A stretch of DNA of 64,000 nt from Euglena gracilis (Eukaryota): positions 18,958,642-19,022,641 of the forward strand of contig CP154954.1 in the NCBI GenBank assembly GCA_039621445.1, in the 5' to 3' direction. Position numbers and translations under genes: made by a program. Within the stretch, counting starts at the first letter, position 1; each line of letters starts with the position of its first letter. Of this stretch, positions 1 to 62,916 are shown in pieces. Below the pieces are notes generated by a model. That model was not told the DNA's origin. It saw nothing but the letters and a program-made list of their open reading frames with translations, and made no database searches.

Positions 1-1266
1 CATGGGCGGCGTCGCCTGCTTGCTATCGGGGGATCGGATTCCGCATCACTGTCGACGTTCACCATGTCACCCAGGGTGCCATCGAGGTCCACATAGGAAG
101 TCGAGGAGACACTGCTGCAGTCATCTTCTGCCGTCGAGGTCTGCATGCCCAGAGCCCATGAATTCTGACGAGGTGGTTCAGGTTGTCCGGCCGCAGCTAT
201 TTTTGTACTCAGTGAACGTTCATCCTCGTCACGGCCCATTGTACCACTTCTCTTCTGCCCCAATCTGGGCTTTCTATTCTTGTGTCTAGGACCTCCACTT
301 CCCGCAGTGCCTTTTGCAGGGGAAATGGGCTGGGGCTCGGGCTGTCTTTTGCAGGCGATCAGAGACACCTTCTTGATGTTTCTTGATCTATGACTTCAGC
401 ATTTGGAGAGCCTGAGGAATGTTGAGAGTGAACATGTGAAAAAAGGAGAGTGTCCTTACCTTCAACTGGACCAAAAAGTTCCAAGCTCGATAGGTAACCA
501 GGATGGTCTCTCTGAAGACAGGGAATGAGCTGTGGAGAGCAGGAAAGACAGCAACACACCAGTCCTCCTCACTGCCACAAATAAAATTCTGCTGCGTTCC
601 TTCTGTCGCTCCTTCAGGTTCGGTCACAGCTTCCCCTTGAAAAAGAAGAAAACCGGAAGGAGATTGCCGTAGAAAGTCGCAAACAAAAAAGTACGCCCGG
701 TTTAAGTCGCCAAGCATTCTGCGATAGAACGCGACGAGAAGGAAGAGGTTTCGCTCGGGCTTTTCAGACTTTTCGGCCGTGCTCTTTACTCAGACACCTC
801 GGGCTCCGCACTTTGCCCTTGTGAGGCCATGCCTTGTTCGCTGGATCAAAAGTTCCTCGGATCCCCTTCCTCCCCTGTCGGTTTGCCTCGAGGGAGTGCG
901 GCATCCCTGAATGCGACTTTGTTCGCGTTTGAAGTGCTTTTGGAATTGTGTTCAGGTGGACTCTTTTTTATTGATGACGCAAGGTGTGAGGCCGGCTCGC
1001 CGCCTCACAAGGTCTTTGTTCTTCGCCCTCGGTGTCCCTTCCTCCCTGGTCGGTTTGCCTCGAGGGAGTGTGAAACAGCACGCTAAACAGAGACCATTAA
1101 AAATTTTGAGACAGTCTGCGAGGGGTATCGAGAGCGTCCTCGACAGAGTTAAAGGTCGCCCGCAAGGGATCGAGGGCGTCGTGCGCTGTCCCTGGGCTTC
1201 GAATTGCACCCCCCCCCCCCGGTCCTGTTTCTGTAAAAGCCTGAAAAAGATGTCCGCCCCACCATT

Positions 1267-1626
1267 GAGTACTCCCGGGAAGTCTGACCAGGGAGGAAGT
1301 GACCATGAGGGCGGAGCACAAGAGGGGGGTGAGATCCTGCTTTGAGTGCCCGATGTTTTGTTGTGTTTGTGTTCTTCTTGGCGGGGTGCTTCTTACTGCG
1401 AATTTGGTGCCGGAGTCGGCGGTGATGTGCTCTTCGACACCGACTTGGCGAAGGTGAACCTCAGTGGCTCCCCGTCCCTTCGATGTATGTGGGTCCGTTT
1501 CCGCCACCCCCCCCCTCCCCTGATGGGGATGCTTTCCTTTTTCGGGTGGGTGTGGTGGGCTCACCCCCCTCTTGTGCTCTGCCCTCATGATCACTTCCTC
1601 CCTGGTCAGACTTCACGGGAGTACTC
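1267..1626. repeat. About 66-bp inverted repeat (stem-loop), possible DIRS terminal/internal complementary region; duplicated at about 16009-16370
   Basis: gagtactcccgggaagtctgaccagggaggaagtgaccatgagggcggagcacaagagggggg (1267-1333) is the reverse complement of 1560-1626 with few mismatches. The loop segment 1325-1420 has an inverted homologue at about 21555-21650. Confidence 0.8.
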
Positions 1627-1720
1627 GACCATTCGGGCTCCGCACACTCTGGGGGTGAGACTTTGTGCACGACCCCTTTTTCAATTTTTTTCTTGCTGAA
1701 TCCACCGCCCCCAATCGTAA

Positions 1721-1941
1721 GTAAACCGCCCCAATAGCACCCCCCCCCCAAATAACACCCCCCCCCCAAATAACCCCCCCGCCTCGGGGGCCGATTTCGA
1801 GCGCCAAAATAACACACCCCCCTGTTTTCCTTTGGTTTTCCATGTAATAATAACACCCCCCCAAATAACACCCCCCCCCTGGGGCCCCAGTTCGGGTGCC
1901 CAAATAACACACCGGGGGGGTGTTATTTGGGGGGGGTTTAA
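1721..1941. mobile_element. Palindromic MITE-like element, family gtaaac-cccccc-aaataa (also 16465-16686)
   Basis: Repeated ccccccaaataacacccc motifs on the left and inverted gggggtgttatttgggggg-tttaa on the right. Relatives at 23962-24344 and 50371-50799. Confidence 0.6.
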
Positions 1942-2939
1942 TGTGCTGAAAAAGCTGTGGTTTTTTTCCTTTGACCAAGTTCGCACACCTCCTCACTGGA
2001 CAATCCCAGTTTTTTGTACATCAAAACTCCTGCCCCCCCCCCCCTGGTGCTGTGGGCTTTCCAGTGGGAAATTGGAATGCAAAATGTTTCCAACAACTCT
2101 TTGTCAAAAAGTTGATCCTATTGGATGTCAAGGTTTTTTTGCCATCCAAGCTCCACAACAGAGGGGGCTTGACACCAGCCTTCTCCAGACATTCTATGTC
2201 TCGTTTTCCCATTCCAACAGGAGTCAAGAGGTTCAAGTTCAAATATGGCAAAGGCAAAGTCTATGGCATCCAATTCAAGTCTGGGAGAGGAAAGGGCTAT
2301 GGCAGCCAGTGGAAACCAGGGTGGTCCAAAGGTTCGGAATCCTCTCTTGAAAATGTCATTCCACGGCTTATGTCCTCAGGAAAGGCAAGGGGAAGGGATG
2401 AAGCATCAAAGTCCCTAGGAGGAGGGGCACCCAGCCAGAGTGAAGCCCAGATGGAATCAGGGAGAGCAAGCCCCCTCTGCCCAAGAAGGGCAAGCCAGAC
2501 CAAAGATTGATCATGGGAGAGAGCCCCCAGCCGAGCCAAGGAGAATGGGCAAGCTCCCAGCTGACCCCTGACCAGATATCCTATCCAGACTGGCAAGGGG
2601 TCCTGGAAGGAGTGAAATGGCCCCACCACAGTCCCCCCCCCCCCAGTGCAGTTGGAGGAAGGAATCATTCAGGGGCTTGAATTCACAGAACTGGTGCCAT
2701 TGTTTCAGAGATTGAGGACATGTCTGCCATGGTGGCAGAAACATGCAAACCGGTGGGTGGTGTCCCTAATTCAAAATGGGGTTCAACCAGACCACCCCTT
2801 ACCCCAACTACTGTCAAGAAGACAGCAACAAAAGTCAGCTCAGGACATCAGCCTGGCTTCAGAAATCCTGAGGGAGTACCAAGAAAGTGGGTTAACCATA
2901 AAATTGTAAATGCCACAGGCACTGCCCATCTGGAACCCT

Positions 2940-3460
2940 GGTTTGTGTTGTCAGAACCAGAAGGGGAGGGGGTCAAACATTGACTTATCACCGACTGTCG
3001 AGATCTAAATCAATTTTGCTGTCTAGAAAGGTTCACTTTGGAAAACATGACCACCATTTTCCCCAAAGGGGACTGGGCAGTAAAACTAGATTGCCTACTT
3101 TCATCTGGATCTGGAAAAAAAATTCAGAAAATATATGTCAGAATTCAGGTGGGCCCAGACCTGTGGGAGATTCAGGGGGCATGTTTCGGACTAAGCACCC
3201 TCCCAAAATTGTTCATGTCAACAATGAAAGTCATGCAAAAACTGTGGAGATCAGTGTTTGTTTATTTGGACGACATCGTTCTGTTTGGTTCAGCAGAAAA
3301 TCTGGTCAAAAGACATTTGTTGACCATGCTGAAAACCTTAGGGGAGGCTGGGTTCAAGATCAGCCGGAAAACGTCTGTGTTAACACCAACCCAAAGATTA
3401 CAACATCATCGTCGATCTGGTCGGGTTCATCGTCGATCTGGAAGAAGGTCAACTGGAGGT
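2940..3460 (+). pseudogene. DIRS reverse transcriptase (frameshifted)
   Basis: EPWFVL..K.RLITDCRDLN, WAVKLD, ACFGLSTLP, YLDD and LGEAGFKISRKTSVLTPTQ motifs spread over several frames. Confidence 0.88.
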
Positions 3461-4100
3461 GCCCCCCCACAAATTAAAATCCACCAGAAAGGAATTAGGC
3501 AAGGTGATTCTGACCCAGAAATTAAGTCGCAGAAAAATTGCCAGCATTCTGGGACAAATCAGAAGTTACCTCCCAGCTCTGCCATTTTTGCAGTTAGTAA
3601 CCCTAGAACTGTTAAAGTTCAGCCAGCTGAATCAGGAAAAAGGCTGGGATTTTGCATCGGCATTCCAAAAAAAACTGAAGGAGGAAATAAAATTTCTAAA
3701 GACATATCTGCAGCCAGGCTTGAGCAGACCTTTTCTCCAGCAGGCAAAAAGGGTACTGCACTCAGACTCCTCCACATGGGCATGGGGGGGGGTGGACTCC
3801 TCCCAAAACAAAGTCATACAAGAGTTTTGGCGGGAGCAAAATTGTTTGCATATCAATGTAAAAGAGTTGATGGCAGCAGTGCACACAGTGAAAGCCTTTG
3901 CAAAGCTTGGAGAAACTGTTCGGCTAAACGTGGACAATCAGGTGGCTCTAAGTTATCTCACCAAATTGGGGGGGGGCAAAAAAAACAGCAACTCAATCAT
4001 TTTTCGAACCTCTGTTTCGCTGGTGTTTGAAAAACCAAGTTCAGCTGCAGGTCCAGTGGGTAACCTCCTCAGAAATGTTGGCAGACCCCCTCACAAGGTG
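3459..4100 (+). pseudogene. DIRS RNase H domain
   Basis: D(SS)...E(LMA)...D(NQ)...(LA)D acidic tetrad in DIRS-like context, with one frameshift. Confidence 0.85.
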
Positions 4101-4560
4101 GGATCAGGACAGGGGGGATTATACACTGTGCCCAGGCCTGTTCAGGGATGTTCTAAAATTTTTCAGAAGGAAAATTTCCCCAGACACAGACATGTTTGCA
4201 TCTCCAGGAAATACCAAATTCCAGAAATTTGTGGCCAGATGGCCCCACCACAAACCATTTCTGGTAGATGCCCTGAAATGCGACCTGTACTCAGTAACAG
4301 AGGTTTATGCCAATCCTCCCTGGAAAGGCATCTTTCCTTGGCTCATCAGGCTGAGACTTAACAGGGAAGGGAAATGACTTTTGGTGACACCCATGTGGGT
4401 TTCCAGTCCATGGTGGCCTCTATTAATCAAATGTCAAAGCCTGGGACAAGAATGTTAGTCACTCCCCCCAGGGAGCGTATGTTCAAGAACTGTTGGGGGC
4501 AATCAATGCCAAAGCCAAAGTGGCCCCTGGTTTGCACCATTGTATCAGGTTCCTTTGGAA
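4100..4560 (+). pseudogene. DIRS-borne DNA N6-adenine methyltransferase (Dam-like) domain
   Basis: DMFASPGNTKF...VDAL...YANPPW matches the DxFAS/NPP(F/W) signature of the DIRS MT domain, immediately downstream of RNase H. Confidence 0.82.
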
Positions 4561-4700
4561 CAGCAAAAAGTGCCACATCAAGACATCGAAAATGTCCTGA
4601 GGACTTTGGGACCCCTAAAGCGGTATAACAGTGCCTTCAGAAAATTGTTTGTCATCTTGCAACAAAAAGGATTAGAGCCGTTGCAAGTCTCCAGGATGGA

Positions 4701-7043
4701 CACATATGGCATAAAGTGGAGCCCCCACACTTAAGTGTGGGGTATTGGGGGGGGTATGTGTGGGGGGGGTGGAGGGTGTTGGGGGGTGTGTGGGGGGGGG
4801 TGTGGGGGGGGTGTGGGGTGTGAGCGCGGGCCAGATTTGAGATTTATTTTGGTAAGAGATGCCACCAGAAATTAGGCATTGCCTCACAGAGATTTTGGGG
4901 AATTACATTTTTCACAGGCAAGCTGGCAAACAGTGTACAAGTTTGCGTGGGACTCTGAACTGGATTCAAGTATCAAGTCTTGTCTTCTGGGGTGCTGTGT
5001 GGGGAAGTTTGGGAAGAAGACCCCTGAAGACTGAAAATTTGGTTTTGGCCAGAAGTCTGATGTGGTGAAATTATCTGGACACACTGGACCATCCCCCAAC
5101 TTGCACAAACTTGTAGGAGATTTGCAGTGCAGAAAAGCCCCGTACAAACGTACCTGTGGAGCCGGGGACACTCAGAAGTGAAAAGGCATGGAAGTGGCAG
5201 GCCAGCTCAGCAGCAGAAGGGGGACAAGGCAGAGGAAAGCACCAGTTGGCACACAGTGAGATGCTGTGTTGGGCCACCATGATCAACTCTCCAGATCAAG
5301 CTAGCAGCAGGTGATCCTGGAGTTGGTGCTGCTGTGGATCTTGGTTGGAGCCTGGGCTGAAGGACAGACGAATGTCAATCACAGCCCGCCATCATCATCA
5401 ATAATCTCAATCTCCAAAATGTCTGTCAAGATGTCATTTCAGGGTCAAGTTCAAGTCAAGATGTCAAGTTCAATTTCAAGATCCCAAGGAATCTGTGGTG
5501 GAAGAAAGTTGTCATGTCAAGATTTCAATTTCCCAAGGTCAATCTGTGGAGGATCCAAGGTGTGATGTCCAAGATTTCAAGTTCCCAAGTTCAAGATGTC
5601 AAGTTTCAACGTCATTGGTCAATTACCCCCTGGAGATTTCGGCGCGAGGAGCCTGACCTCGTAAAAAACAGTGATCAGGGTTGTGCAACAGCCCTACAAA
5701 CGCACATCTGGTGGCCATCTTCGAGTTCGTCTACCTGTTGCTGCTGTGATGGCTGTGGTGTGTGCCGCCTCCCCGTTCGGTGCTGGGCCGCTTCAAGGGG
5801 GCTCTGCTCCGGTTTGGCTCGGCGGGGGTCGCCGAAGCCCCGGCTGGACCCCATGGGGGGTCATGTTGTACGGGGTAGGTCGTACGACATGGCTCTCTAA
5901 GGTGGAAAGGCTGGGGTGGAGGTAGGCGGGCCCCACATGGTATTTATCTGTGGATTTGGACATGTTTACAATTATCTGTGGATTCGAAGATTTGGCAATT
6001 TAAATTCGAGAACCGCCATTCGTCACTTTTCCATGTCGCTGCTGCGTGTGTGTGTGTGTGTGTGTTGAATTTTTATCTCCGGCCCGCTCATTTTTTACTT
6101 CCGTTTTGGACAATTGCCTGGCAATTGTTTTTGGGAAGGGGGGTGTGAGCGCGGGCCAGATTTGAGATTTATTTTGGTAAGAGATGCCAGCAGAAATTAG
6201 GCATTGCCTCACAGAGATTTTGGGGAATTACATTTTTCACAGGCAAGCTGGCAAACAGTGTACAAGTTTGCGTGGGACTCTGAACTGGATTCAAAGTATC
6301 AAGTCTTGTCTTCTGGGGTGCTGTGTGGGGAAGTTTGGGAAGAAGACCCCTGAAGACTGAAAAGTTGGTTTTGGCCAGAAGTCTGATGTGGTGAAATTAT
6401 CTGGACACACTGGACCATCCCCCAACTTGCAGGGGGGGGTGTGTGGGGGGGGTGTGGGGGGGTGTGTGGGGGGGGGTAGTGTGGGGGTGTGTGTAGGGGG
6501 GGGGTGTGGGGGGTGTGGGGAGGTGTGTGGGGGGGTGTGGGGGGGTGTTGTGGGGGTGTGAGGGGGTGCCAAATCTGAGGAAACTGGATCTTCGTTCCCT
6601 TGCCTTGCACACACAAGGGGATGATGTTATTTTGGTTCTGGGGGGTCCGGCCCCCCCCCCCCTGGACGAGGCCGAAGGCCGCGGCGCGACGAGGCCGAAG
6701 GCCGAGTAAGTCAAAAAAATGACACCCGAACAGTTGCACACATTCAACTTGGGTTTCAAAAAGAATCAGGCTGTTGCTCACCAATGGTACTGTAAACCAA
6801 AAAAGAGGATATTATTTCCCTTGCCTTGCACACACAAGTGGATGATGTTATTTTGGTTCTGGGGGGGGTCCGCCCCCCTCCCCCCCGGGCCGCGGCCGAA
6901 GGCCGCGGCACGACGAGGTCGAAGGCCGAGTAAGTCAAAAAAATGACACCCGAACAGTTGCGCACATTCAACTTGGGTTTCAAAAAGAATCAGGCTGTTG
7001 CTCACCCATGGTACTGTGGGGGCTCCACTTTATGCCATCACTC
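4701..7043. mobile_element. TIR element (hAT-like MITE) inserted in the DIRS YR ORF, with 8-bp TSD; contains two ~200-bp direct repeats and a nested LTR element
   Basis: TIR atggcataaagtggagcccccaca (4706-4729) / tgtgggggctccactttatgccat (7015-7038). TSD aggatgga (4693-4700) / agaatgga (7044-7051). Removal restores ...LQVSRMELATAL... Confidence 0.88.
4819..6431 (+). mobile_element. Non-autonomous LTR retroelement (TRIM/LARD-like), very recent
   Basis: LTRs 4819-5105 and 6144-6431 both start TG and end CA, differing by 2 substitutions and 1 indel. Polypurine tract gggaagggggg directly before the 3' LTR. No coding capacity seen. Absent from duplicate copy 2. Confidence 0.85.
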
Positions 7044-9399
7044 AGAATGGAGTTGGCCACTGCTTTGTGGGACCTGCATAAACTTTCACAGGCTGATGCT
7101 CGCTGTGCATACGCCTCTCTCCAGTATTTGCCTGGGTTGGAGTCCATTCGTTTTAATCCTCTACTCACAACAGTAAAAAAGGAATGGAATCGTTCAGTTC
7201 AGAGGTATGCTGCTTTTTGGGACTCCCTACCCATTTTGCAGAAATTGCTGAGTGCACAACTGGTTTCAGAGATGCCACTTGTAGAGCTCAGCTGGAGAAT
7301 CATTTTGTCCTTCAGACTTCTGGCTCTCCACATGGGGGTGGATTTAGCAAGACAACGGAGGACCATTTCAGTGGTTGGTGAAAAAATCTAAAATAGCAGC
7401 AGTGAGGGGTCAAAGCCTGACCTTCGGCTCCACATTTCCCCCAAGTGAGGTCGACTGTAAACCACCCCTAATAATCAGACTGAAGGCCCCACACACCCCA
7501 TGTGCCCAGGTAAACCTTTTGGTGGCCAAAAATCGACAATTGAGATGTTTTTTGGGGTCATCTTTACTCTGGGGACGGAGGTTCCACCTAACATTTTTTG
7601 TCGTGCCTCTAGTTTTCTTGGCCACCTAACCTCTTATAGTGGGAAAAGTATTCTTCAACAGCTTTCCACTGCCCAGTTTCACATATTTTTCTGAGCTCAA
7701 CCCCAGTTATTCTCGTCACTTTAACTCCTGTCCCTGGTGGAATGCGGCTCGAATACGACAATGAACTCCAAAGGGCACTGAATTATTTTGGTTAACGACG
7801 ACAAAGAGTCTGCCCTGATTCCACTGAAGGCGGCTTGGAGGGTCAAAAAGAACAGCTCTCCTTGGGATGAAATAGTGGTTGTGAGAGAGACGTTCTCCCG
7901 CAACACGTGCAATGGTGAGATTTGAGCAATTTTTGGAAAAAACCTCAGTCTTTTCTCCTTTCTGCTGTTTGACCATTTCTCCTTATCTTTACATAGTGAA
8001 TCGAACATAATAATTTTGCAATCATTTTCATTTGTGCTAAACCAGAAGATTTGAGCAACATAAAGTGTCTAAACGCCGGGAGCAAATGCAAACGTAACTC
8101 TGACAGGTTGTGATCAAGTGTGGTAAAGGAAAATGAGGCCAGATGTCTCCGAAAGCAGAGGCCAGGAATACAATAAAGCGCCATGTTTCTGAATATTTTT
8201 GTTCCACGCTTTTTTCTTTAAGGGTTCGAAGGGGATGAAATTTAAACTTCTCCCTAACTCCTGGCAGAAGTCACACCAGCTGAGTACCCTAAACCATTCT
8301 ATTTGGTTAATGGCCGGGCTCCTTCGGAACCAATTTGGGCGGGAGAACAATTAGCGTGGTTACCTTGAACATTATAAAATTTGGCTTGCCAGTTTTGAAT
8401 AGACCTGAGATCTTTACCCTGCACGGTTTGGACTGTAAAACCGAAAAGTGGCTCGGAATCTAGGCAGAGGCGGAGTGTTTGGGTGCAATTTTTGATGCGT
8501 TTTGTCGTCATGTTTAGCTCAAAATAGTACCTTTGGGTCTGGGAGGCAAAAGAACATCGTTTTAGGCAGTTTTTGTCTTCAGATTTATCTCGAGTTTTTT
8601 TCGACCTGCTTTTGACATCAAACCCATGAGTTTCAAGCCAAATTGGGGGGGCCAAGTTGGTGGAAAAGCTCGTCTTCGGCTCAAAAAACAGTTTTTTTCT
8701 GGGTTGGAGAGGCCGAAAAACATGGTATTGGACAAAAATGTGTTCAACTTTTTTTGACTTCTTGACCAAAAGCTGGCGTAAAAAGGCAACGTCAAAGCAA
8801 GCCAACGCTGAACAGAACGGCCGAGAGTGGCCAAAAAGAGCAAAATTGGCCAAAATAGCCGTACCTTGGACTGGGCGAGGAGCTGCAAAGCAATCTCAAT
8901 TATGTTAGATAGGACAATTTAATGGCTTCATTTTGAGGTCTGCGGACATTTCCATTGATTCCTAACCACTTTTGAGAAGTTTTTGAAAACGGATTTCTTG
9001 AACCAAAAAAAGGACAAAAGATGGCTAGGTCGCAGGCTGGCCGCGCTTTTTTGGGCAATAAATCAGCCAGGTTGCGAGGTAGGCTGGGGATTGTCGGGAA
9101 CACAAAATTCGGTTAAATAGGGCGTTCCAAGGGCTTTTGCGGACATTTCCTAGGATTTTGCTTCATTTTTTTGATAATTTAAAAAAACGATTTTTTGTCC
9201 CTGGAAAAAACCCCAAGACGGCCCCATAGTTAGGCAACATTTGGCCAAACATGGCCGTACGTCGGGTTAAACGAAGGGTTGAGGGAACCGTAAAGCATGG
9301 TTTGATAGAGCGTTCCAAGTTCTTCATTTTTGCTGTCTGGACAGCATGGTGCTGACTGCCCAAAAGGTGACCACCATCAAAACTTTTCCTTTGGGAAAA

Positions 9400-14746: not shown

Positions 14747-17700
14747 CATGGGCGGCGTCGCCTGCTTGCTATCGGGGGATCGGATTCCGCATCACTGTCG
14801 ACGTTCACCATGTCACCCAGGGTGCCATCGAGGTCCACATAGGAAGTCGAGGAGACACTGCTGCAGTCATCTTCTGCCGTCGAGGTCTGCATGCCCAGAG
14901 CCCATGAATTCTGACGAGGTGGTTCAGGTTGTCCGGCCGCAGCTATTTTTGTACTCAGTGAACGTTCATCCTCGTCACGGCCCATTGTACCACTTCTCTT
15001 CTGCCCCAATCTGGGCTTTCTATTCTTGTGTCTAGGACCTCCACTTCCCGCAGTGCCTTTTGCAGGGGAAATGGGCTGGGGCTCGGGCTGTCTTTTGCAG
15101 GCGATCAGAGACACCTTCTTGATGTTTCTTGATCTATGACTTCAGCATTTGGAGAGCCTGAGGAATGTTGAGAGTGAACATGTGAAAAAAGGAGAGTGTC
15201 CTTACCTTCAACTGGACCAAAAAGTTCCAAGCTCGATATGTAACCAGGATGGTCTCTCTGAAGACAGGGAATGAGCTGTGGCAGCAGGAAAGACAGCAAC
15301 ACACCAGTCCTCCTCACTGCCACAAATAAAATTCTGCTGCGTTCCTTCTGTCGCTCCTTCAGGTTCGGTCACAGCTTCCCCTTGAAAAAGAAGAAAACCG
15401 GAAGGAGATGGCCGTAGAAAGTCGCAAACAAAAAAATACGCCCGATTTAAGTCGCCAAGCATTCTGCGATAGAACGCGACGAGAAGGAAGAGGTTTCGCT
15501 CGGGCTTTTCAGACTTTTCGGCCGTGCTCTTTACTCAGACACCTCGGGCTCCGCACTTTGCCCTTGTGAGGCCATGCCTTGTTCGCTGGATCAAAAGTTC
15601 CTCGGATCCCCTTCCTCCCCTGTCGGTTTGCCTCGAGGGAGTGCGGCATCCCTGAATGCGACTTTGTTCGCGTTTGAAGTGCTTTTGGAATTGTGTTCAG
15701 GTGGACTCTTTTTTATTGATGACGCAAGGTGTGAGGCCGGCTCGCCGCCTCACAAGGTCTTTGTTCTTCGCCCTCGGTGTCCCTTCCTCCCTGGTCGGTT
15801 TGCCTCGAGGGAGTGTGAAACAGCACGCTAAACAGAGACCATTACAAATTTTGAGACAGTCTGCGAGGGGTATCGAGAGCGTCCTCGACAGAGTTAAAGG
15901 TCGCCCGCAAGGGATCGAGGGCGTCGTGCGCTGTCCCTGGGCTTCGAATTGCACCCCCCCCCGGTCCTGTTTCTGTAAAAGCCTGAAAAAGATGTCCGCC
16001 CCACCATTGAGTACTCCCGGGAAGTCTGACCAGGGAGGAAGTGACCATGAGGGCGGAGCACAAGAGGGGGGTGAGATCCTGCTTTGAGTGCCCGATGTTT
16101 TGTTGTGTTTGTGTTCTTCTTGGCGGGGTGCTTCTTACTGCGAATTTGGTGCCGGAGTCGGCGGTGATGTGCTCTTCGACACCGACTTGGCGAAGGTGAA
16201 CCTCAGTGGCTCCCCGTCCCTTCGATGTATGTGGGTCCGTTTCCGCCACCCCCCCCCCTCCCCTGATGGGGATGCTTTCCTTTTTCGGGTGGGTGTGGTG
16301 GGCTCACCCCCCTCTTGTGCTCTGCCCTCATGATCACTTCCTCCCTGGTCAGACTTCACGGGAGTACTCGACCATTCGGGCTCCGCACACTCTGGGGGTG
16401 AGACTTTGTGCACGACCCCTTTTTCAATTTTTTTCTTTGCTGAATCCACCGCCCCCAATCGTAAGTAACCCCCCCCAAAAGCCCCCCCCCCCCAAATACC
16501 CCCCCCCCCCCCAAATAACCCCCCCGCCTCGGGGGCCGATTTCGAGCGCCCATATAACACACCCCCCTGTTTTCCTTTGGTTTTCCATGTAATAATAACA
16601 CCCCCCCAAATAACACCCCCCCCCTGGGGCCCCAGTTCGGGTGCCCAAACAACACACCGGGGGGGTGTTATTTGGGGGGGGTTTAATGTGCTGAAAAAGC
16701 TGTGGTTTTTTTCCTTTGACCAAGTTCGCACACCTCCTCACTGGACAATCCCAGTTTTTTGTACATCAAAACTCCTGCCCCCCCCCCTGGTGCTGTGGGC
16801 TTTCCAGTGGGAAATTGGAATGCAAAAGGTTTCCAACAACTCTTTGTCAAAAAGTTGATCCTATTGGATGTCAAGGTTTTTTTGCCATCCAAGCTCCACA
16901 ACAGAGGGGGCTTGACACCAGCCTTCTCCAGACATTCTATGTCTCGTTTTCCCATTCCAACAGGAGTCAAGAGGTTCAAGTTCAAATATGGCAAAGGCAA
17001 AGTCTATGGCATCCAATTCAAGTCTGGGAGAGGAAAGGGCTATGGCAGCCAGTGTAAACCAGGGTGGTCCAAAGGTTCGGAATCCTCTCTTGAAAATGTC
17101 ATTCCACGGCTTATGTCCTCAGGAAAGGCAAGGGGAAGGGATGAAGCATCAAAGTCCCTAGGAGGGGGGGCAGCCAGCAGAAGCAAGCTCAGAAGGAATC
17201 AGGGTCAGCAAGCCCCCTCTGCCCAAGAACGGCAAGCCAGACCCAAGATTGATCAGGGGAGAGATCCCCCAGCTCAGCCAAGGGGAAAGGGCAAGCTCCC
17301 AGCTGACCCCTGCCCAGATATCCTATCCAGACTGGCAAGGGCTCCTGGAAGGAGTGAAATGGCCCCATCACAGTCCCCCCCCCCCCCAGTGCAGTTGGAG
17401 GAAGGAATCATTCAGGGGCTTGAATTCACAGAACTGGTGCCATTGTTTCAGAGATTGAGGACATGTCTGCCATGGTGGCGGAAACATGCAAACCGGTGGG
17501 TGGTGTCCCTAATTCCAAATGGGGTTCAACCAGACCACCCCTTACCCCAACTACTGTCAAGAAGACAGCAACAAAAGTCAGCTCAGGACATCAGCCTGGC
17601 TTCAGAAATCCTGAGGGAGTACCAAGAAAGTGGGTTAACCATAAAATTGTAAATGCCACAGGCACTGCCCATCTGGAACCCTGGTTTGTGTTGTCAGAAC

Positions 17701-20517
17701 CAGAAGGGGAGGGGGTCAAACATCGACTTATCACCGACTGTCGAGATCTAAATCAATTTTGCTGTCTAGAAAGGTTCACTTTGGAAAACATGACCACCAT
17801 TTTCCCCAAAGGGGACTGGGCAGTAAAACTAGATTGCCTACTTTCATCTGGATCTGGAAAAAAAAATTCAGAAAATATATGTCAGAATTCAGGTGGGCCC
17901 AGACCTGTGGGAGATTCAGGGGGCATGTTTCGGACTAAGCACCCTCCCAAAATTGGTCATGTCAACAATGAAAGTCATGCAAAAACTGTGGAGATCAAAG
18001 CAGTTACAGGTGTTTGTTTATTTGGACGACATCATTCTGTTTGGTTCAGCAGAAAATCTGGTCAAAAGACATTTGTTGACCATGCTGAAAACCTTAGGGG
18101 AGGCTGGGTTCAAGATCAGCCGGAAAACGTCTGTGTTAACACCAACCCAAAGATTACAACATCATCGTCGATCTGGTCGGGTTCATCGTCGATCTGGAAG
18201 AAGGTCAACTGGAGGTGCCCCCCCACAAATTAAAATCCACCAGAAAGGAATTAGGCAAGGTGATTCTGACCCAGAAATTCAGTCGCAGAAAAATTGCCAG
18301 CCTTCTGGGACAAATCAGAAGTTACCTCCCAGCTCTGCCATTTTTGCAGTTAGTAACCCTAGAACTGTTAAAGTTCAGCCAGCTGAATCAGGAAAAAGGC
18401 TGGGATTTTGCATCGGCATTCCAAAAAAAAACTGAAGGAGGAAATAAAATTTCTAAAGACATATCTGCAGCCAGGCTTGGGCAGACCTTTTCTCCAGCAG
18501 GCAAAAAGGGTACTGCACTCAGACTCCTCCACATGGGCATGGGGGGGGGTGGACTCCTCCCAAAACAAAGTCATACAAGAGTTTTGGCGGGAGCAAAATT
18601 GTTTGCATATCAATGTAAAAGAGTTGATGGCAGCAGTGCACACAGTGAAAGCCTTTGCAAAGCTTGGAGAAACTGTTCGGCTAAACGTGGACAATCAGGT
18701 GGCTCTAAGTTATCTCACCAAATTGGGGGGGGGGGGCAAAAAAAACAGCAACTCAATCATTTTTGGAACCTCTGTTTCGCTGGTGTTTGAAAGCTGCAGG
18801 TCCAGTGGGTAACCTCCTCAGAAATGTTGGCAGACCCCCTCACAAGGTGGGATCAGGACAGGGGGGATTATACACTGTGCCCAGGCCTGTTCAGGGATGT
18901 TCTAAAATTTTTCAGAAGGAAAATTTCCCCAGACACAGACATGTTTGCATCTCCAGGAAATACCAAATTCCACAAATTTGTGGCCAGATGGCCCCACCAC
19001 AAACCATTTCTGGTAGATGCACTGAAATGCGACCTGTACTCAGTAACAGAGGTTTATGCCAATCCTCCCTGGAAAGGCATCTTTCCTTGGCTCATCAGGC
19101 TGAGACTTAACAGGGAAGGGAAATGACTTTTGGTGACACCCATGTGGGTTTCCAGTCCATGGTGGCCTCTATTAATCAAATGTCAAAGCCTGGGACAAGA
19201 ATGTTAGTCACTCCCCCCAGGGAGGGTATGTTCAAGAACTGTTGGGGGCAATCAATGCCAAAGCCAAAGTGGCCCCTGGTTTGCACCATTGTGTCAGGTT
19301 CCTTTGGAACAGCAAAAAGTGCCACATCAAGACATCGAAAATGTCCTGAGGACTTTGGGACCCCTAAAGCGGTATAACAGTGCCTTCAGAAAATTGTTTG
19401 TCATCTTGCAACAAAAAGGATTAGAGCCGTTGCAAGTCTCCAGGATGGACACATATGGCATAAAGTGGAGCCCCCACACTTAAGTGTGGGGTATTGGGGG
19501 GGGTATGTGTGGGGGGGGTGTGGGGGGGGTGTGTGTGGGGGGGGGGGGGGGTGTGTGGGGGGGGGGGGGGTGTGTGGGGGGTGTGGTGTGGGGGGGTGTG
19601 GGGGGTGGGTAGTGTGGGGGTGTGTGTAGGGGGGGGTGTGGGGGGTGTGGGGAGGGGGGTGGGGGGGTGTGGGGGGGTGTTGTGGGGGTGTGAGGGGGTG
19701 CCAAATCTGAGGAAACTGGATCTTCGTTCCCTTGCCTTGCACACACAAGGGGATGATGTTATTTTGGTTCTGGGGGGTCCGCCCCCCCCCCCTGGACGAG
19801 GCCGAAGGCCGCGGCGCGACGAGGCCGAAGGCCGAGTAAGTCAAAAAAATGACACCCGAACAGTTGCACACATTCAACTTGGGTTTCAAAAAGAATCAGG
19901 CTGTTGCTCACCAATGGTACTGTAAACCAAAAAAGGGGATATTATTTCCCTTGCCTTGCACACACAAGTGGATGATGTTATTTTGGTTCTGGGGGGGTCC
20001 GCCCCCCCCCCCCCGGGCCGCGGCCGAAGGCCGCGGCACGACGAGGTCGAAGGCCGAGTAAGTCAAAAAAATGACACCCGAACAGTTGCGCACATTCAAC
20101 TTGGGTTTCAAAAAGAATCAGGCTGTTGCTCACCCATGGTACTGTGGGGGCTCCACTTTATGCCATCACTCAGAATGGAGTTGGCCACTGCTTTGTGGGA
20201 CCTGCATAAACTTTCACAGGCTGATGCTCGCTGTGCATACGCCTCTCTCTAGTATTTGCCTGGGTTGGAGTCCATTCGTTTTAATCCTCTACTCACAACA
20301 GTAAAAAAGGAATGGAATCGTTCAGTTCAGAGGTATGCTGCTTTTTGGGACTCCCTACCCATTTTGCAGAAATTGCTGAGTGCACAACTGGTTTCAGAGA
20401 TGCCACTTGTAGAGCTCAGCTGGAGAATCATTTTGTCCTTCAGACTTCTGGCTCTCCACATGGGGGTGGATTTAGCAAGACAACGGAGGACCATTTCAGT
20501 GGTTGGTGAAAAAATCT
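14747..20517. repeat. Segmental duplication, copy 2
   Basis: Colinear with 1-7389, including shared frameshifts, the shared catcgtcgatctgg micro-duplication and the shared TIR insertion. Confidence 0.97.
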
Positions 20518-29240: not shown

Positions 29241-54015
<24,775 letters not shown>

Positions 54016-55883: not shown

Positions 55884-57426
55884 ATGAACGCCGGTCAGGT
55901 TGCTACCGTTTGCACCAGTGCACTGCCCCAACCCCCCACACCAGCTGAATTCTTTGCTGGCCTTGAGGCTGCCGACGCACCTCGGAAAACAGCAGAAGGC
56001 CATAAAAATTTTTTTTGGGGATACGTTTGTCGACAGTTGCCCCACTGGTGGATTGGCAAAAAACAAAATAGTGGCTCTTGCAGTTGCGCGGGATTTCCAA
56101 AAGGTTTGCGAACTACGTGGGGCAACGTTTGACTTTCTGGATGACTGGCTGGTGGCATTTGCCTTCTGGACGGTAAAAGTCACGTGCCTTTTTGATCACG
56201 GTGACGAGAAGCAACAGGCAGCCGCCGTCCAGCGAAACAAAAACCAAAACAAAAAGCGTAACAGTGCAATCAACAGAATGCCAAGCAACCGCTCCGGGAG
56301 CAGCTTATGCTGCCCCGTGACAACCCCAAAATTTGTGGGGTGGAGACATGGCAGCGGCAACTGGCACTGCTGCCAGATGCCGCTAATCCCTCCTTACCAT
56401 TCTGGTGCTCCTGCAAAATTATCTGCAAAATTCCGGTCCCGTCAAGGCATAGTGGGCCGGCCTGTTTTTTTTGACGTTGTTTTGTTTTGTTTTTTTAATT
56501 TTAACAATGTTTTTTTTAAAAAAAACAAAAAAACGCCCACTAGGTTTTGCATGGAAAATTTTTTGAATGAACATTTTCAATCATTTTTGGCAATTTCTGG
56601 GTAATTTCTGCCAAAAACTTCCTTCCACAAAAATGAAAAAAAAGGCATAAAATTCCATTTTTGTTGCATTTTGGATGTTTTTGACCATTTTTGGCAGTTT
56701 TTGAACTGAGTAGGATTCAAAATATGGTTTGGGTGTTTCATAACGAGTTTTTTCAATGAAATTTTCCTTTTGTTTTTTTTTTGATGTTTTTTTTTACTGT
56801 TTTTTTTAAAAAAAACAAAAAAATGCCCACTATGCGTCAAGGCAACTTATGCAACGTTTCCTGGGGCAGCCAATTGGGCGCGGGACGTGCTTGACCGGCC
56901 AAATTGTCTTCAAGGATCTGGCCCGCCGTCCGGTGGTGTCTGCTTTGGTGGACGAGTTGGGGTTGCATCGGGCGGCAAAGGCTGTGGGCATGTGCCCACG
57001 CAATACGGAAAAGTATTATCGTGCTCCCCAAGACGACATTTGTCGTCAGGCAGCGCAAGCTCTCCAAAACGTGTACATTTTTACATTTTAATTTTACCTC
57101 ACATACACGTATTCCTTTAGCAGAGGCGGCTGCCCACGGACATTCCCAGTTCTACCCGAACCTTATTGACGCCGAAGAAAGAAGAGCCACGGGTTGTGGA
57201 ACTGTTGGACAGTTCGGATGACGAGGTTTTGCAGATTCACCAGCTTGAAAATTCATTTTCCACTCACTCGAGGTCATTGTGGACGGCGGTGTTGCACCAC
57301 CTGTCACACTTCCTAAAGAGGATCCCCTGCCGGCTAAGCATCTCCAATGCTCCAGCGGTGAAGCCAGAGGAGGTAAAAATCCCGTTTGACGGCAGTTTTA
57401 CACTACTGTCTTCAGGAGCCGGCTGA
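55884..57426 (+). pseudogene. Decayed tyrosine-recombinase (Crypton-like) gene with unknown N-terminal domain, one GT-AG intron (57070-57120) and a MITE insertion
   Basis: After removing 56448-56842 one frame reads DNPKICGVETWQRQLALLP...PFW...IVFKDLARRPVVSALVDELGLHRAAKAVGMCPRNTEKYY, resembling YR CPV, HxxR and T..Y motifs. Splicing joins QALQN to QRRL...VVELLDSSDDE in frame. Confidence 0.6.
56448..56834. mobile_element. hAT-type MITE with perfect 8-bp TSD
   Basis: TIR catagtgggc / gcccactatg. TSD cgtcaagg at 56440-56447 and 56835-56842. AT-rich interior. Confidence 0.92.
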
Positions 57427-57613: not shown

Positions 57614-58566
57614 CGGTAGACTGGGGGGGGGGTAGTGGGTAGTCGGCCGACTAGTCGGCCGACCAATTGGGTAGTCGGCCGACTACCCACTCTAATGTAC
57701 TAACGGGTCAAAACCGCCGACTTTTAAGCCCCCCCCGGTAAATTTTTTTTGTCCAAATCACCTCAACACCAGTCAAAACCCACCCAAATGGCTCCAGAAC
57801 CCCCCAATCGGGGGTGAATATGCAAAAAAATTGGGGGAAAATGTCCATTTTGGGCCACTTTTGACAAAAGTACACCTCTCCCCATTTTCAATATAAGTCA
57901 AAATTTGCACAAAAAAAGGTCTTATCAAGCCAAGTCTATTGCCAACATAGAAGGGATTTTGTTATTTGAGTGGGGGGGCGGGGGGGGGGAGCCCCCCCCC
58001 CCCCCCGAATAGGCCAAAGTGAGCAACAAAAACGACTTAGCCCCCAGTATGTTGCCAACACAGAAGGGATTTTGTTATTTGAGGCTCGGATTGGGGTGGA
58101 GGGGGGAGTTTTCTGCCTCTCGTGATACAGAATGCTTGCATTCCTGAAGGATTTTCATGTAATCCCTGTTTCATCAGTGGTTTTTTACCCCTCCGGACCC
58201 CCATCAAGGGCCCACCGACCCCCCACGGACCAAAGATTTCCATCTGGGGGTGTTTATTTAGGCGTAAGACACCTATTTGGACCCATCCGGACCATTTCCG
58301 GGTGATTTGGGCCCGCCACAGACCATTTTTATGACCGCCGACTAGCCACCGACTAGTTTGCATTGGATTTTGTTCATGGGGGGGGCTTAAAAGTCGGCGG
58401 TTTTGACCCGTTAGTACATTAGAGTGGGTAGTCGGCCGACTAGTTGGCCGACTACGCACTACCCCCCCCCCCCCATGTCTCGCCGACCAGCTACCGACTA
58501 GGCCTAGTCGGCGGACCAATTGGGTAGTCGGCCGACTACCCACTACCCCCCCCCCCCAGTCTACCG
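57614..58566. mobile_element. Foldback/TIR element with long modular inverted arms
   Basis: cggtagactggggggg...gtagtcggccgactac...ctctaatgtactaacgggtcaaaaccgccgacttttaagcccc is inverted at 58378-58566. Confidence 0.82.
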
Positions 58567-60144: not shown

Positions 60145-61164
60145 AGCTTCGTGTTTTTCCTGATTTGACGCGACGAGTAGAGGGAAGCTGTGACTGCTTT
60201 TCGGAAAGGAAGGAATTTTTTTTTTGGTCCGGCCGGCTGGCAAGACAGACATTGGTCCGGCTTGACGGACGGCTGGCGAAAAAATGCTTCGTCCGGACGG
60301 ACGGCTGGGCGTCCAGCATTGGTCCAGCTGAAGAGGTCCGGACGGCTCGGACGGCTAGCCGGCCAGCCGCCCCCAAGCCCCTTTTTTCGACCCCCCCCCC
60401 TTAGTGACCCCCCCCCCTAAGTGACCCTTCGGGGGGGGTCCTGGCCGAGACAAGATGGGGGTCATTTGGGGGGGGTAATTGTAATTCCCGTTCCTTTCCG
60501 AGTGTCCATTGTTTGACATATCGCATGATGGCTGAGAAGTGAAAACTTTGGACGGGTTCAAGTTACAAGAGCTGTTATCTATATCGAGAATTGTGTCCCA
60601 AACGCCAGTTCGGATGTGAAACCTGTGCCTGGGACGTCGGTTCCGGGGTTACCGCCCGGTAGCCCGGTAGCCCGAACCGGCGTCCCAGGCACATGTTTCA
60701 CGCCCGAACCGGCGTCTGGGACACAGTTTTTGAAACCGTGGCTAGTGGGCTCCGGTTTCATGCCCGAACCGGCGGCTGAGGAATCACGGCCAATTTCGCC
60801 CAAAATACCCATGTTTGGGGCAGTTTTGGGCTACTTTGGCCCAAATGGGCCGCCGGTCAAAAATGGCAGATTACACACTTATGAAGCCATGTTACCCATT
60901 AATCGAAAGCTCTTCTCAAGGGCTTTCGACAGATGGCCATAGGATTCGGCGGCTCCCGGACCTGGCCTGGGGGGGGGGTAGTGGGCCGACCCTAGGGTCG
61001 GCCCAATACGACCCCAGGGTCGCTAGGGTCGCTAAAGTCGTTAAGGTCGACCCCCCCCCACAGGATGTGGAGTCTAGGGTCGGCCCACCCCACGACCTCG
61101 CCCGCCCCAAAAAAAATGTGGAGAATTTTTTTTGCCCATTTGAACAGGAATTGAAGTTGGACTT

Positions 61165-62560
61165 GATGTCGTTTTGGGGGGCAAGTCCCTTGTGTTTTCA
61201 AACTGTTTTGGGGGGCAAATCCCTTGTGTTGTCCAACCGATCGAGGGCCCCAAAATAATAAAATCCCTTGTGTCTCCAAGTCGTTTTGGGGGGCAAGTCC
61301 CTTGTGTTTTCAAATCGTTTTGGGGGGCAAATCCCTTGTGTTGTCCAACTGATCGAGGGCCCGAAAATAGTAAAATCCCTTGTGTCTCCAAGTGCCTTGC
61401 GTTCAAGTTGTTTTGGGAGGCAAATCCCTTGTATTGTTCGACCGATCGAGGGCCCCAAAATAATAAAATCCCTTGTGTCTCCAAGTCGTTTTGGGGGGCA
61501 AGTCCCTTGTGTTTTCAAATCGTTTTGGGGGGCAAATCCCTTGTGTTGTCCAACTGATCGAGGGCCCCAAAATAATAAAATCCCTTGTGTCTCCAAGTCG
61601 TTTTGGGGGGCAAGTCCCTTGTGTTTCCAAGTTGTTTTGGGGGGCAAATCCCTTGTGTTGTTCAACCGATCGAGCTCCCCAAAATAATAAAATCCCTTGT
61701 GTCTCCAAGTCGTTTTGGGGGGCAAGTCCCTTGTGTTTTCAAATCGTTTTGTGGGGCAAATCCCTCGTGTTTCCAACTGATCGAGGGCCCCAAAATAATA
61801 AAATCCCTTGTGTCTCCAAGTCGTTTTGGGGGGCAAGTCCCTTGTGTCTTCAAATCGTTTTGGGGGGCAAATCCCTTGTGTTGTCCAACTGATCGAGGGC
61901 CCCAAAATAATAAAATCCCTTGTGTCTCCAAGTCGTTTTGGGGGGCAAGTCCCTTGTGTTTCCAAGTTGTTTTGGGGGGCAAATCCCTTGTGTTGTTCAA
62001 CCGATCGAGCTCCCCAAAATAATAAAATCCCTTGTGTCTCCAAGTCGTTTTGGGGGGCAAGTCCCTTGTGTTTTCAAATCGTTTTGTGGGGCAAATCCCT
62101 CGTGTTTCCAACTGATCGAGGGCCCCAAAATAATAAAATCCCTTGTGTCTCCAAGTCGTTTTGGGGGGCAAGTCCCTTGTGTTTTCAAATCGTTTTGGGG
62201 GGCAAATCCCTTGTGTTGTCCAACTGATCGAGGGCCCGAAAATAGTAAAATACCTTGTGTCTCCAAGTCGGTTTGGGGGGCAAGTCCCTGGTGTTTCCAA
62301 GTTGTTTTGGGGGGCAAATCCCTTGTGTTGTTCAACCGATCGAGCTCCCCAAAATAATAAAATCCCTTGTGTCTCCAAGTGCCTTGTGTTTTCAAGTCGT
62401 TTTGGGGGGCAAATCCCTTGTGTTGTCCAACTGATCGAGGGCCCCAAAATAATAAAATCCCTTGTGTCTCCAAGTGGTTTTGGGGGGCAAATCCCTTGTG
62501 TTTCCAAGTTGTTTTGGGGGGCAAATCCCTTGTGTTGTTCAACCGATCGAGGGCCCCAAA
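61165..62560. repeat. About 112-bp satellite (about 12 copies) made of three related subunits each containing (a/g)tcccttgtgt
   Basis: Unit caagtcgttttggggggcaagtcccttgtgttttcaaatcgttttggggggcaaatcccttgtgttgtccaactgatcgagggccccaaaataataaaatcccttgtgtctc. Confidence 0.95.
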
Positions 62561-62916
62561 GGAGGCGGACGGACGGACGGACGGACGGCTGGTGAAAAAA
62601 GCGAAGGTCCGGACGGACGGCTGACCTTGTGGGCTTGGTCCAGACGGCTGAAGAAAATGCACTTGGTCCAGCTAGCCGGCTAGCCGGCTGGCCGGCCCGA
62701 GTCCTTGTAAGCGCAGGCGTCTCAGTGCACGCGACTCTGGAGCTGGGGTGCTGCTAGCCTGGCCACATCTGGCTAGCCGCGGCCAGCCGCGGCTGGCTGG
62801 CAAAAAAAAGGAGGAGGTCTGGCCAGCCAAGATTTGGTGTTCTGTCCCGAAACTTTCTTCCGCTTCATTTTGTTGGACTAGTCCTTTTTTTCTTTTGATA
62901 TTGAGAAGTGTATCGT

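Follow-up and report, generated by a model that had tools for sequence, protein, structure and literature searches.

A miniature inverted-repeat transposon in a degenerate Euglena gracilis retroelement, examined as a candidate origin for nonconventional introns

Background

The origin of the nonconventional introns of euglenids and the mechanism of their removal are open questions. An origin from MITEs (miniature inverted-repeat transposable elements) was proposed in 2013 (PMC3935182) and has been repeated since (PMC12501133, PMC11282704, PMC12621601). The stretch of DNA analysed here, 64,000 nucleotides of the Euglena gracilis contig CP154954.1 (positions 18,958,642 to 19,022,641 of the forward strand; hereafter, the window), raises this question in a concrete form, as it contains an element with long terminal inverted repeats (TIRs) inserted in an open reading frame (ORF) of a retroelement. 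A first-pass annotation, which rightly stated that a MITE origin had been proposed before, considered this element to be a candidate intron generator: cut into 3 and 5 nt, its 8-bp target-site duplication (TSD) would provide the spacers that are found at the ends of the nonconventional introns, so that such insertions would be spliceable and frame-neutral from the beginning. The window suits the examination of this idea because it also encompasses a fully mapped E. gracilis gene with 28 introns, a test bed for proposals on intron origin. The analysis favors another answer: it is likely that the element is an ordinary non-autonomous TIR transposon (a MITE) which was inserted once, was later duplicated together with its host and has no role in splicing.

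Structure and insertion history of the element

The candidate intron of the first-pass annotation (4698-7048, with a second copy at 19447-20176) was correctly located and corresponds to the element proper plus 3 nt on its left and 5 nt on its right (Table 1). The 24-nt TIR core, ATGGCATAAAGTGGAGCCCCCACA, has four perfect matches in the window, one for each arm of copies 1 and 2 (chance expectation 0.00 in 100 shuffles). Beyond the core, every copy, including a third, more divergent one, has five further conserved bases on each side. The left ones read CACAT in all three; the right ones read CACTC in copies 1 and 2 and GACTC in copy 3. Since the flanks differ between loci beyond these tips, the element is bounded at 4701-7043, 19450-20171 and 37122-37421, respectively. 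The long TIRs that had been announced are therefore real, but they do not start at the tips: among the outermost five positions of both ends only one A-T pair can form, and the predicted RNA fold of the element leaves 8 nt unpaired at its 5' end and 10 nt at its 3' end.

In copy 2, the TIRs enclose a G/T-rich microsatellite (19495-19698) followed by a tandem pair of 222-bp units (19727-20145). Copy 1 differs from it by a nested insertion of 1613 bp in the G-rich microsatellite, which makes the 722-bp copy 2 the older state. The terminal direct repeats of this insertion (4815-5105 and 6140-6431) are 99.0% identical over 292 nt and, together with its TG...CA ends and a purine run ahead of the 3' repeat, give it the appearance of a small long terminal repeat (LTR) element. 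None of the element ORFs that were tested (two in copy 2 and two in the nested insertion) matched a Pfam family, the three Rfam matches of copy 2 were all far under the gathering scores, and no transposase family was detected by Pfam among the 21 window ORFs that were scanned. A metagenome scan with a 22-nt TIR pattern gave no matches; a 16-nt pattern gave 117 single matches, the downstream bases of which resemble the TIR no more than expected by chance.

Both copies are embedded in similar surroundings: positions 1-4822 are 97.9% identical to 14747-19574, and 6432-7389 are 98.5% identical to 19563-20517. As copies 1 and 2 are located within one duplicated block, they record a single insertion event, and the second copy, which the first-pass annotation also listed, is not an independent one. 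The block looks like the product of a duplication at the DNA level. It measures at least 7.4 kb at about 98% identity (window 1-7389 and 14747-20517) and is composed of DIRS-like retroelement fragments. Upstream in both block copies, a fragment of the C-terminal ORF is present in inverted orientation (about 1265-2164 and 16007-16907). Past 7389 and 20517 the block copies diverge, the first one being followed by an inverted ORF piece (7615-7984) and the second one continuing to about 20641.

The 8-mers that border the element, aggatgga and agaatgga, are identical at 7/8 positions (P about 4e-4 for one fixed register). The homologues of the interrupted ORF allow the empty site to be read. At E ≤ 0.001, a representative protein library yielded 244 relatives of the downstream half of this ORF, the closest of which, P0037, is the EukProt Euglena gracilis protein EG_transcript_11465. 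P0037 matches the upstream half with its residues 18-64 (up to QVSR; 87% identity) and the downstream half with its residues 66-115 (from ELA onwards; 86% identity), leaving a single residue between them, as expected once the element and one 8-bp copy are removed. Three more distant homologues (P0025, P0026 and P0027) are also collinear across the site in tblastn alignments. Given that four homologues, including an E. gracilis transcript protein, read through the empty site, the element is an insertion, and its excision does restore the frame ...VSRMELAT... that had been predicted. At 86-87% identity, P0037 derives from another copy of the retroelement; no transcript product of the window's own host copy was found in the protein collection, P0037 being the closest sequence, although the restricted candidate lengths make this weak evidence.

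The length of the duplication deserves some caution. The last five of the eight positions (atgga) are identical on both sides and the first three match at two positions (agg versus aga), an agreement of at least 2/3 that chance alone would produce with a probability of about 0.16. If only these five base pairs had been duplicated, the agreement with the 3+5 spacers would vanish, and the element would have to be placed in a superfamily whose TSDs are shorter; copy 3, which has no TSD of any length, does not help to decide. Yet, on both sides, agg and aga stand where the homologues have the arginine of their conserved ...VSR, and two other insertions in the window (see below) bear perfect 8-nt duplications, which means that an 8-bp-TSD system exists there. 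A duplication of 8 bp, as originally annotated, is thus the better reading, and we regard the 5-bp alternative as quite unlikely.

The host itself is a frameshifted and rearranged retroelement fragment, the frames of which are broken several times, and not a gene under selection. Upstream in the host (2984-4027), a reverse transcriptase domain (RVT_1) remains slightly under the cut-off (E = 1e-6, 29.0 bits versus 29.6), and the same domain is found with E = 1.5e-15 in the homologue P0027, which also has the domain interrupted by the element. PDB searches, both with a single sequence and with a profile, gave no match. One of 12 homologues matched Phage_integrase (E = 0.0018) and an R...HSTRGAG...HY.R pattern is visible by eye in the consensus; these similarities weakly suggest that the retroelement may encode a tyrosine recombinase, as DIRS-like elements would.

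In the scenario that we favor, a MITE of E. gracilis landed a single time in the ORF located downstream of the reverse transcriptase in a DIRS-like retroelement, most probably duplicating 8 bp of its target. Its mobility would have been of the cut-and-paste type, provided by an unseen transposase. The retroelement fragment carrying the MITE would later have been duplicated at the DNA level to give copies 1 and 2, and the 1.6-kb LTR-like insertion would then have entered the G-rich microsatellite of copy 1.

The element and the nonconventional splicing code

The published code of the nonconventional introns is N3-CDG...CH'G-N5-6|R, with spacers that were fixed experimentally at 3 and 5(-6) nt, and single substitutions in CAG or CTG abolish the splicing of a knocked-in intron (PMC12501133). 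Pairing of positions +5 and +6 with -8 and -7 was present in 55/55 analysed introns (PMC4770533). In the candidate intron, positions +4 to +6 read CAC in copies 1, 2 and 3, which is not a CDG triplet, and positions -8 to -6 read CTC in all copies, with no complementary CH'G at -8..-6 or -9..-7. The pairing string of the ends is.|...||||, that is to say that +4/-6 is unpaired, that C faces C at +6/-8, that +5/-7 is the only pair among the first five and that the stem begins at +9/-11. The first-pass annotation had placed the TIR pairing in the same +4/-6 register as in the introns of the neighboring gene, but only the latter hold to it: 11/11 strict-code introns of that gene have 4-10 contiguous pairs starting at +4/-6.

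Other features do agree with the intron consensus. The junctions are both of the announced Y|R type (T|G), with a purine on their downstream side. Nevertheless, both T|G derive from a single TSD dinucleotide and count only once. More generally, whatever the TSD, cutting its two copies at one and the same offset gives back the target and its frame; neither the 3+5 geometry nor the frame neutrality thus counts as an independent observation. The published spacers indeed sum to 8, as the first-pass annotation had argued, but in this element the correspondence follows from the choice of the cut. The element fails the published code and agrees with the intron consensus only in features that result from this construction. 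As it has neither the CDG/CH'G pair nor a flush stem at its ends, both of which the nonconventional splicing machinery needs, it would have no splicing role.

One could still imagine a tolerant machinery that makes use of the long TIR stem and splices the element from retroelement transcripts in spite of its CAC/CTC triplets. The 24-nt stem brings both ends together in the predicted fold, the junctions are suitable, and a substantial minority of the nonconventional introns of E. agilis do not have the strict signature (PMC12501133). However, a 3+5 cut measured from the real stem (+9/-11) would leave 10 extra nucleotides and break the frame, the required triplets are missing, and the only transcript-derived relative, P0037, comes from another copy. 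We consider this scenario extremely improbable.

A third copy and the tips of the family

The decay of one copy could have been invoked to explain the unsuitable tips, as the first-pass annotation did. Copy 3 makes this unlikely. It represents a diverged subfamily whose TIR arms (37127-37150 and 37393-37416) have three substitutions with regard to the core, the same three in both arms. Its ends are CACAT...GACTC, and those of the other subfamily CACAT...CACTC; both can be summarized as CAC...CTC, so these tips are a trait of the family (hereafter, family 1) and not the result of the decay of one copy. The consensus of the two subfamilies in the window is consequently not CAG/CTG-like, an outcome that the first-pass annotation had itself named as contrary to its proposal. 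The flanks of copy 3 (AAGAGAGG and CATGTGTT) match at 1/8 positions and form no TSD, hence the TSD evidence of the family rests on one event. Copy 3 is located inside a strict-code nonconventional intron (37838..36786) of the gene studied below, well away from the intron ends.

The introns of the cyclase gene and their junctions

The gene was found through the ORF 38559-39143 (minus strand), which leads to P0001, the E. gracilis protein EG_transcript_1461, with a cyclase domain. The exons are identical or nearly identical to this protein (100% or close to it), with a few substitutions and one 1-residue indel; because several residues are not the same in EG_transcript_1461 and in the window, the transcript may stem from another allele. 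The introns were classified by enumerating every boundary compatible with the P0001 protein. GT/GC-AG borders were not possible at any compatible boundary in any of the introns (0/28). The strict code N3-CDG...CH'G-N5 can be read in 11/28 and the code with a 6-nt 3' spacer in 2/28; a further 5/28 have triplets of another kind that pair in this register (CAA/TTG twice, CAC/GTG, CGG/CTG and AGC/GCT). None of the 28 introns belongs to family 1, and a BLAST comparison among them only revealed one internal match of 111 nt (introns 108/109 versus 208/209), unrelated to this family.

If introns derived from insertions with 8-bp TSDs that are cut at the 3+5 positions, the last 5 exon nucleotides plus the first 3 intron nucleotides should resemble the last 5 intron nucleotides plus the first 3 exon nucleotides. 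The comparison was made against 756 mismatched donor-acceptor pairs from the same cyclase gene. The 28 introns have a mean identity of 2.32 (control 2.43) and the 11 strict-code introns one of 2.45 (control 2.39, standard deviation 1.4); thus, there is no excess in this sample, which is that of a single gene whose introns may all be old. The mean length of the junction direct repeats is 1.32, and 1.04 in the control. The excess of junction identity anticipated by the first-pass annotation is absent with a sole exception, the last intervening sequence of the gene.

This sequence of 102 nt, absent from the transcript protein, is bordered by a perfect 8-nt direct repeat (CCCTGGCC); no control pair (0/756) has a repeat of 8. 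The perfect repeat results in nine protein-compatible boundaries, and the CDG/CH'G code is found at none of them (0/9). The 94 nt between the repeats contain an 8-bp inverted repeat at distances of 5 and 7 nt from their ends, and they have no second copy in the window. The retention of the sequence would introduce a premature stop that terminates the protein 26 codons in. No retained form was found in the protein collection, only the exon part of P0001, although here too the candidate lengths were restricted and the evidence is weak. The sequence could be either a young intron of an unusual type or a 94-bp allele-specific insertion with an 8-bp TSD.

Other repeats and elements in the window

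A scan of the window for TIRs (10 nt or longer) bordered by 8-mers that agree at 7/8 positions or more gave 37 raw matches, most of them low-complexity or palindromic sequences, versus 0-3 in ten shuffles, and it produced no element ending CAG...CTG with an 8-bp TSD. Besides family 1, its clean match is a second MITE, AT-rich and 387 bp long, with a perfect 8-bp TSD (CGTCAAGG), 10-nt TIRs flush with it (CATAGTGGGC...GCCCACTATG) and termini CAT...ATG, about 1.9 kb upstream of the start codon of the cyclase gene. Its TSD and the lack of relation to family 1 indicate that elements making 8-bp duplications are ordinary in the E. gracilis genome. Between the TIRs of this MITE (family 2) and those of family 1, only a stretch of six invariant columns can be aligned, which was rejected as a sign of kinship. 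An internal partial copy of its 3' TIR is present near 56520-56545.

Other repeats are of more diverse kinds. An element of about 1.1 kb (52470-53630) has perfect 38-nt TIRs (52486-52523 and 53575-53612) which reach TTAA on both sides, with a 2-nt bulge; it occupies part of the nonconventional intron 53869..52328 of the cyclase gene. Pfam gave no family for its ORFs, nor for ORFs in other TIR elements. An inverted-repeat structure of about 340 bp is present at 1275-1618 and 16017-16361, with the palindromic 8-mer GAGTACTC on both sides; since this palindrome is its own reverse complement, it may be an extension of the TIRs rather than a TSD. In the region 61124-62617, a unit of about 112 bp is repeated in tandem, in at least 13 copies at 62-99% identity, and a perfect 65-nt inverted repeat (57672-57736 and 58378-58442) is found in a GC-rich palindromic region.

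Table 1 Coordinates of the element, its insertion site and the other main features of the window
Feature	Position	Strand	Remarks
Element copy 1	4701-7043	+	2343 bp; family 1; with nested 1.6-kb insertion
TIR core left arm, copy 1	4706-4729	+	24 nt, 0 mismatches
TIR core right arm, copy 1	7015-7038	-	24 nt, 0 mismatches
5' tip, copy 1	4701-4705	+	CACAT; also in copy 3; no complementarity with the 3' tip
3' tip, copy 1	7039-7043	+	CACTC; GACTC in copy 3
Left TSD, copy 1	4693-4700	+	aggatgga
Right TSD, copy 1	7044-7051	+	agaatgga
Nested LTR-like insertion	4819-6431	+	1613 bp; copy 1 only; in G-rich microsatellite
Element copy 2	19450-20171	+	722 bp; ancestral state
TIR core left arm, copy 2	19455-19478	+	24 nt, 0 mismatches
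TIR core right arm, copy 2	20143-20166	-	24 nt, 0 mismatches
Left TSD, copy 2	19442-19449	+	same insertion event, duplicated with the host
Right TSD, copy 2	20172-20179	+	same pair as copy 1
Host ORF, upstream half	4459-4698	+	ends LEPLQVSRM; DIRS-like retroelement fragment
Host ORF, downstream half	7047-7388	+	starts MELATALWDLHK
Element copy 3	37122-37421	+	300 bp; diverged subfamily
Cyclase-domain gene EG_transcript_1461 (P0001)	29244-54558	-	813 aa (amino acids), 29 exons, 28 introns
102-nt intervening sequence	29314-29415	-	last of the cyclase gene; absent from the transcript protein
Second MITE	56448-56834		387 bp, AT-rich; perfect 8-bp TSD; termini CAT...ATG

Transposons as a source of introns

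Several observations could be taken to suggest that family 1, or relatives of it ending CAG...CTG, were the source of the nonconventional introns, their 3- and 5-nt spacers being the parts of a TSD and the removal being exact at the RNA level. The experimentally defined spacers sum to 8 and junction direct repeats are present in 84.4% of the E. agilis introns (PMC12501133). In E. agilis, the junctions of a recently gained gapC intron bear direct repeats of 8 nt (PMC4770533). In the window, two TIR families have 8-bp TSDs, and the repeat that borders the 102-nt sequence is longer than that of any control. Nevertheless, the tips of both subfamilies of family 1 are CAC/CTC and unpaired, copy 3 lies within an intron and not at its ends, the cyclase introns do not have more junction identity than their controls, and the scan of the window did not reveal any suitable CAG...CTG element. 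Moreover, the 102-nt sequence does not have the code at any boundary and may be an allele-specific insertion instead of an intron, and the authors of the gapC study suggested double-strand-break repair as the alternative (PMC4770533). An origin of the introns from this family or such relatives therefore appears unlikely, and the candidacy of the element as an intron generator, with neither the CDG/CH'G triplets nor a flush stem and within a degenerate retroelement, finds no support.

A broader version of the idea does not require family 1 to have been spliced. The 3- and 5-nt spacers may be the fossil of an 8-bp TSD, in which case the introns would descend from TIR transposons of the 8-bp-TSD kind, of which there are three instances in the window, and the machinery would remove the element together with one copy of the TSD. 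The 102-nt sequence would then be a young intron and family 1 a non-spliceable cousin. We hold this complete scenario to be rather unlikely. As a general hypothesis, the link from TSD to intron is attractive, testable and partly in print; some circumstantial support for it is found in the literature, and some is new. The nonconventional introns have already been described as having TIRs (CAG/CTG at +4..6/-8..-6), Y|R junctions and "TSD-like" repeats (PMC11282704). In the accessible parts of this literature, supplements being outside the search, we found neither a named family of source transposons nor a statement of the argument that 3+5 equals 8; a search for transposon annotations of E. gracilis found no Euglena paper.

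Some points also weigh against the interpretation that we favor, an ordinary MITE without a splicing role. The absence of splicing is deduced from sequence signals, and these signals are not infallible: 38.8% of the nonconventional introns of E. agilis do not have the defined signature (PMC12501133), so the code is not absolute. Neither is the triplet rule absolute in the cyclase gene, as two real introns on the minus strand (51926..49012 and 31861..31075) have CAC at +4..+6. One of them pairs it with GTG in a stem of 11 pairs; in the other one CAC stands opposite CTG, and +6, which is unpaired, adjoins a strong 6-bp GGCCGG/CCGGCC stem. As for the transposon, only two independent insertions of family 1 were examined, one of which has no TSD, and no transposase or autonomous partner was seen, its mobility being deduced from structure alone.

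If the element is indeed an ordinary MITE, it is neither a source of nonconventional introns nor evidence that such transposons become introns. The locus is instructive in other respects: TIR elements that make 8-bp duplications live in the E. gracilis genome and land in or near genes, and the 102-nt sequence with its perfect junction repeat provides a concrete target for RNA work.

Comparison with known systems

The element has the general features of MITEs: TIRs, no coding capacity, presence at unrelated loci and insertion at an otherwise intact site. It resembles MITEs with 8-bp TSDs in its shortness, its non-coding nature, its TIRs and its flanking duplication of probably 8 bp, and the existence of subfamilies with co-varying TIR arms at unrelated loci is also typical of them. 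It differs in that the outermost five nucleotides of family 1 are not inverted repeats, no transposase was seen and one of the two independent copies has no TSD.

With regard to its superfamily, hAT elements make 8-bp TSDs and have TIR tips with a YARNG motif. The 5' tip CACAT only fits this motif in part, and the 8-mers flanking family 1 match at 7/8 positions in one insertion event and at 1/8 in the other. Besides, superfamilies other than hAT, such as Merlin, also make TSDs of 8 bp. Merlin families with 8-bp TSDs are present in E. gracilis and their TIRs start with GG (PMC8101967); as 0/3 elements in the window do so, membership in Merlin was rejected.

The nonconventional introns of euglenids are similar to the element in having inverted repeats near their ends, Y|R junctions and a frame-neutral removal in the same organism, but the element has CAC/CTC where the introns have CDG/CH'G, its stem starts at +9/-11 and it resides in a degenerate retroelement. 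A parallel to the proposed concept is that of the introners of Micromonas, Aureococcus, dinoflagellates and others, in which transposons with TIRs and TSDs become spliceosomal introns and the TSD gives one of the splice sites (PMC11282704). In both cases the geometry of TSD and TIR would make an insertion spliceable at birth, whereas introners rely on the spliceosome and GT/GC-AG signals and occur as hundreds to thousands of similar intronic copies.

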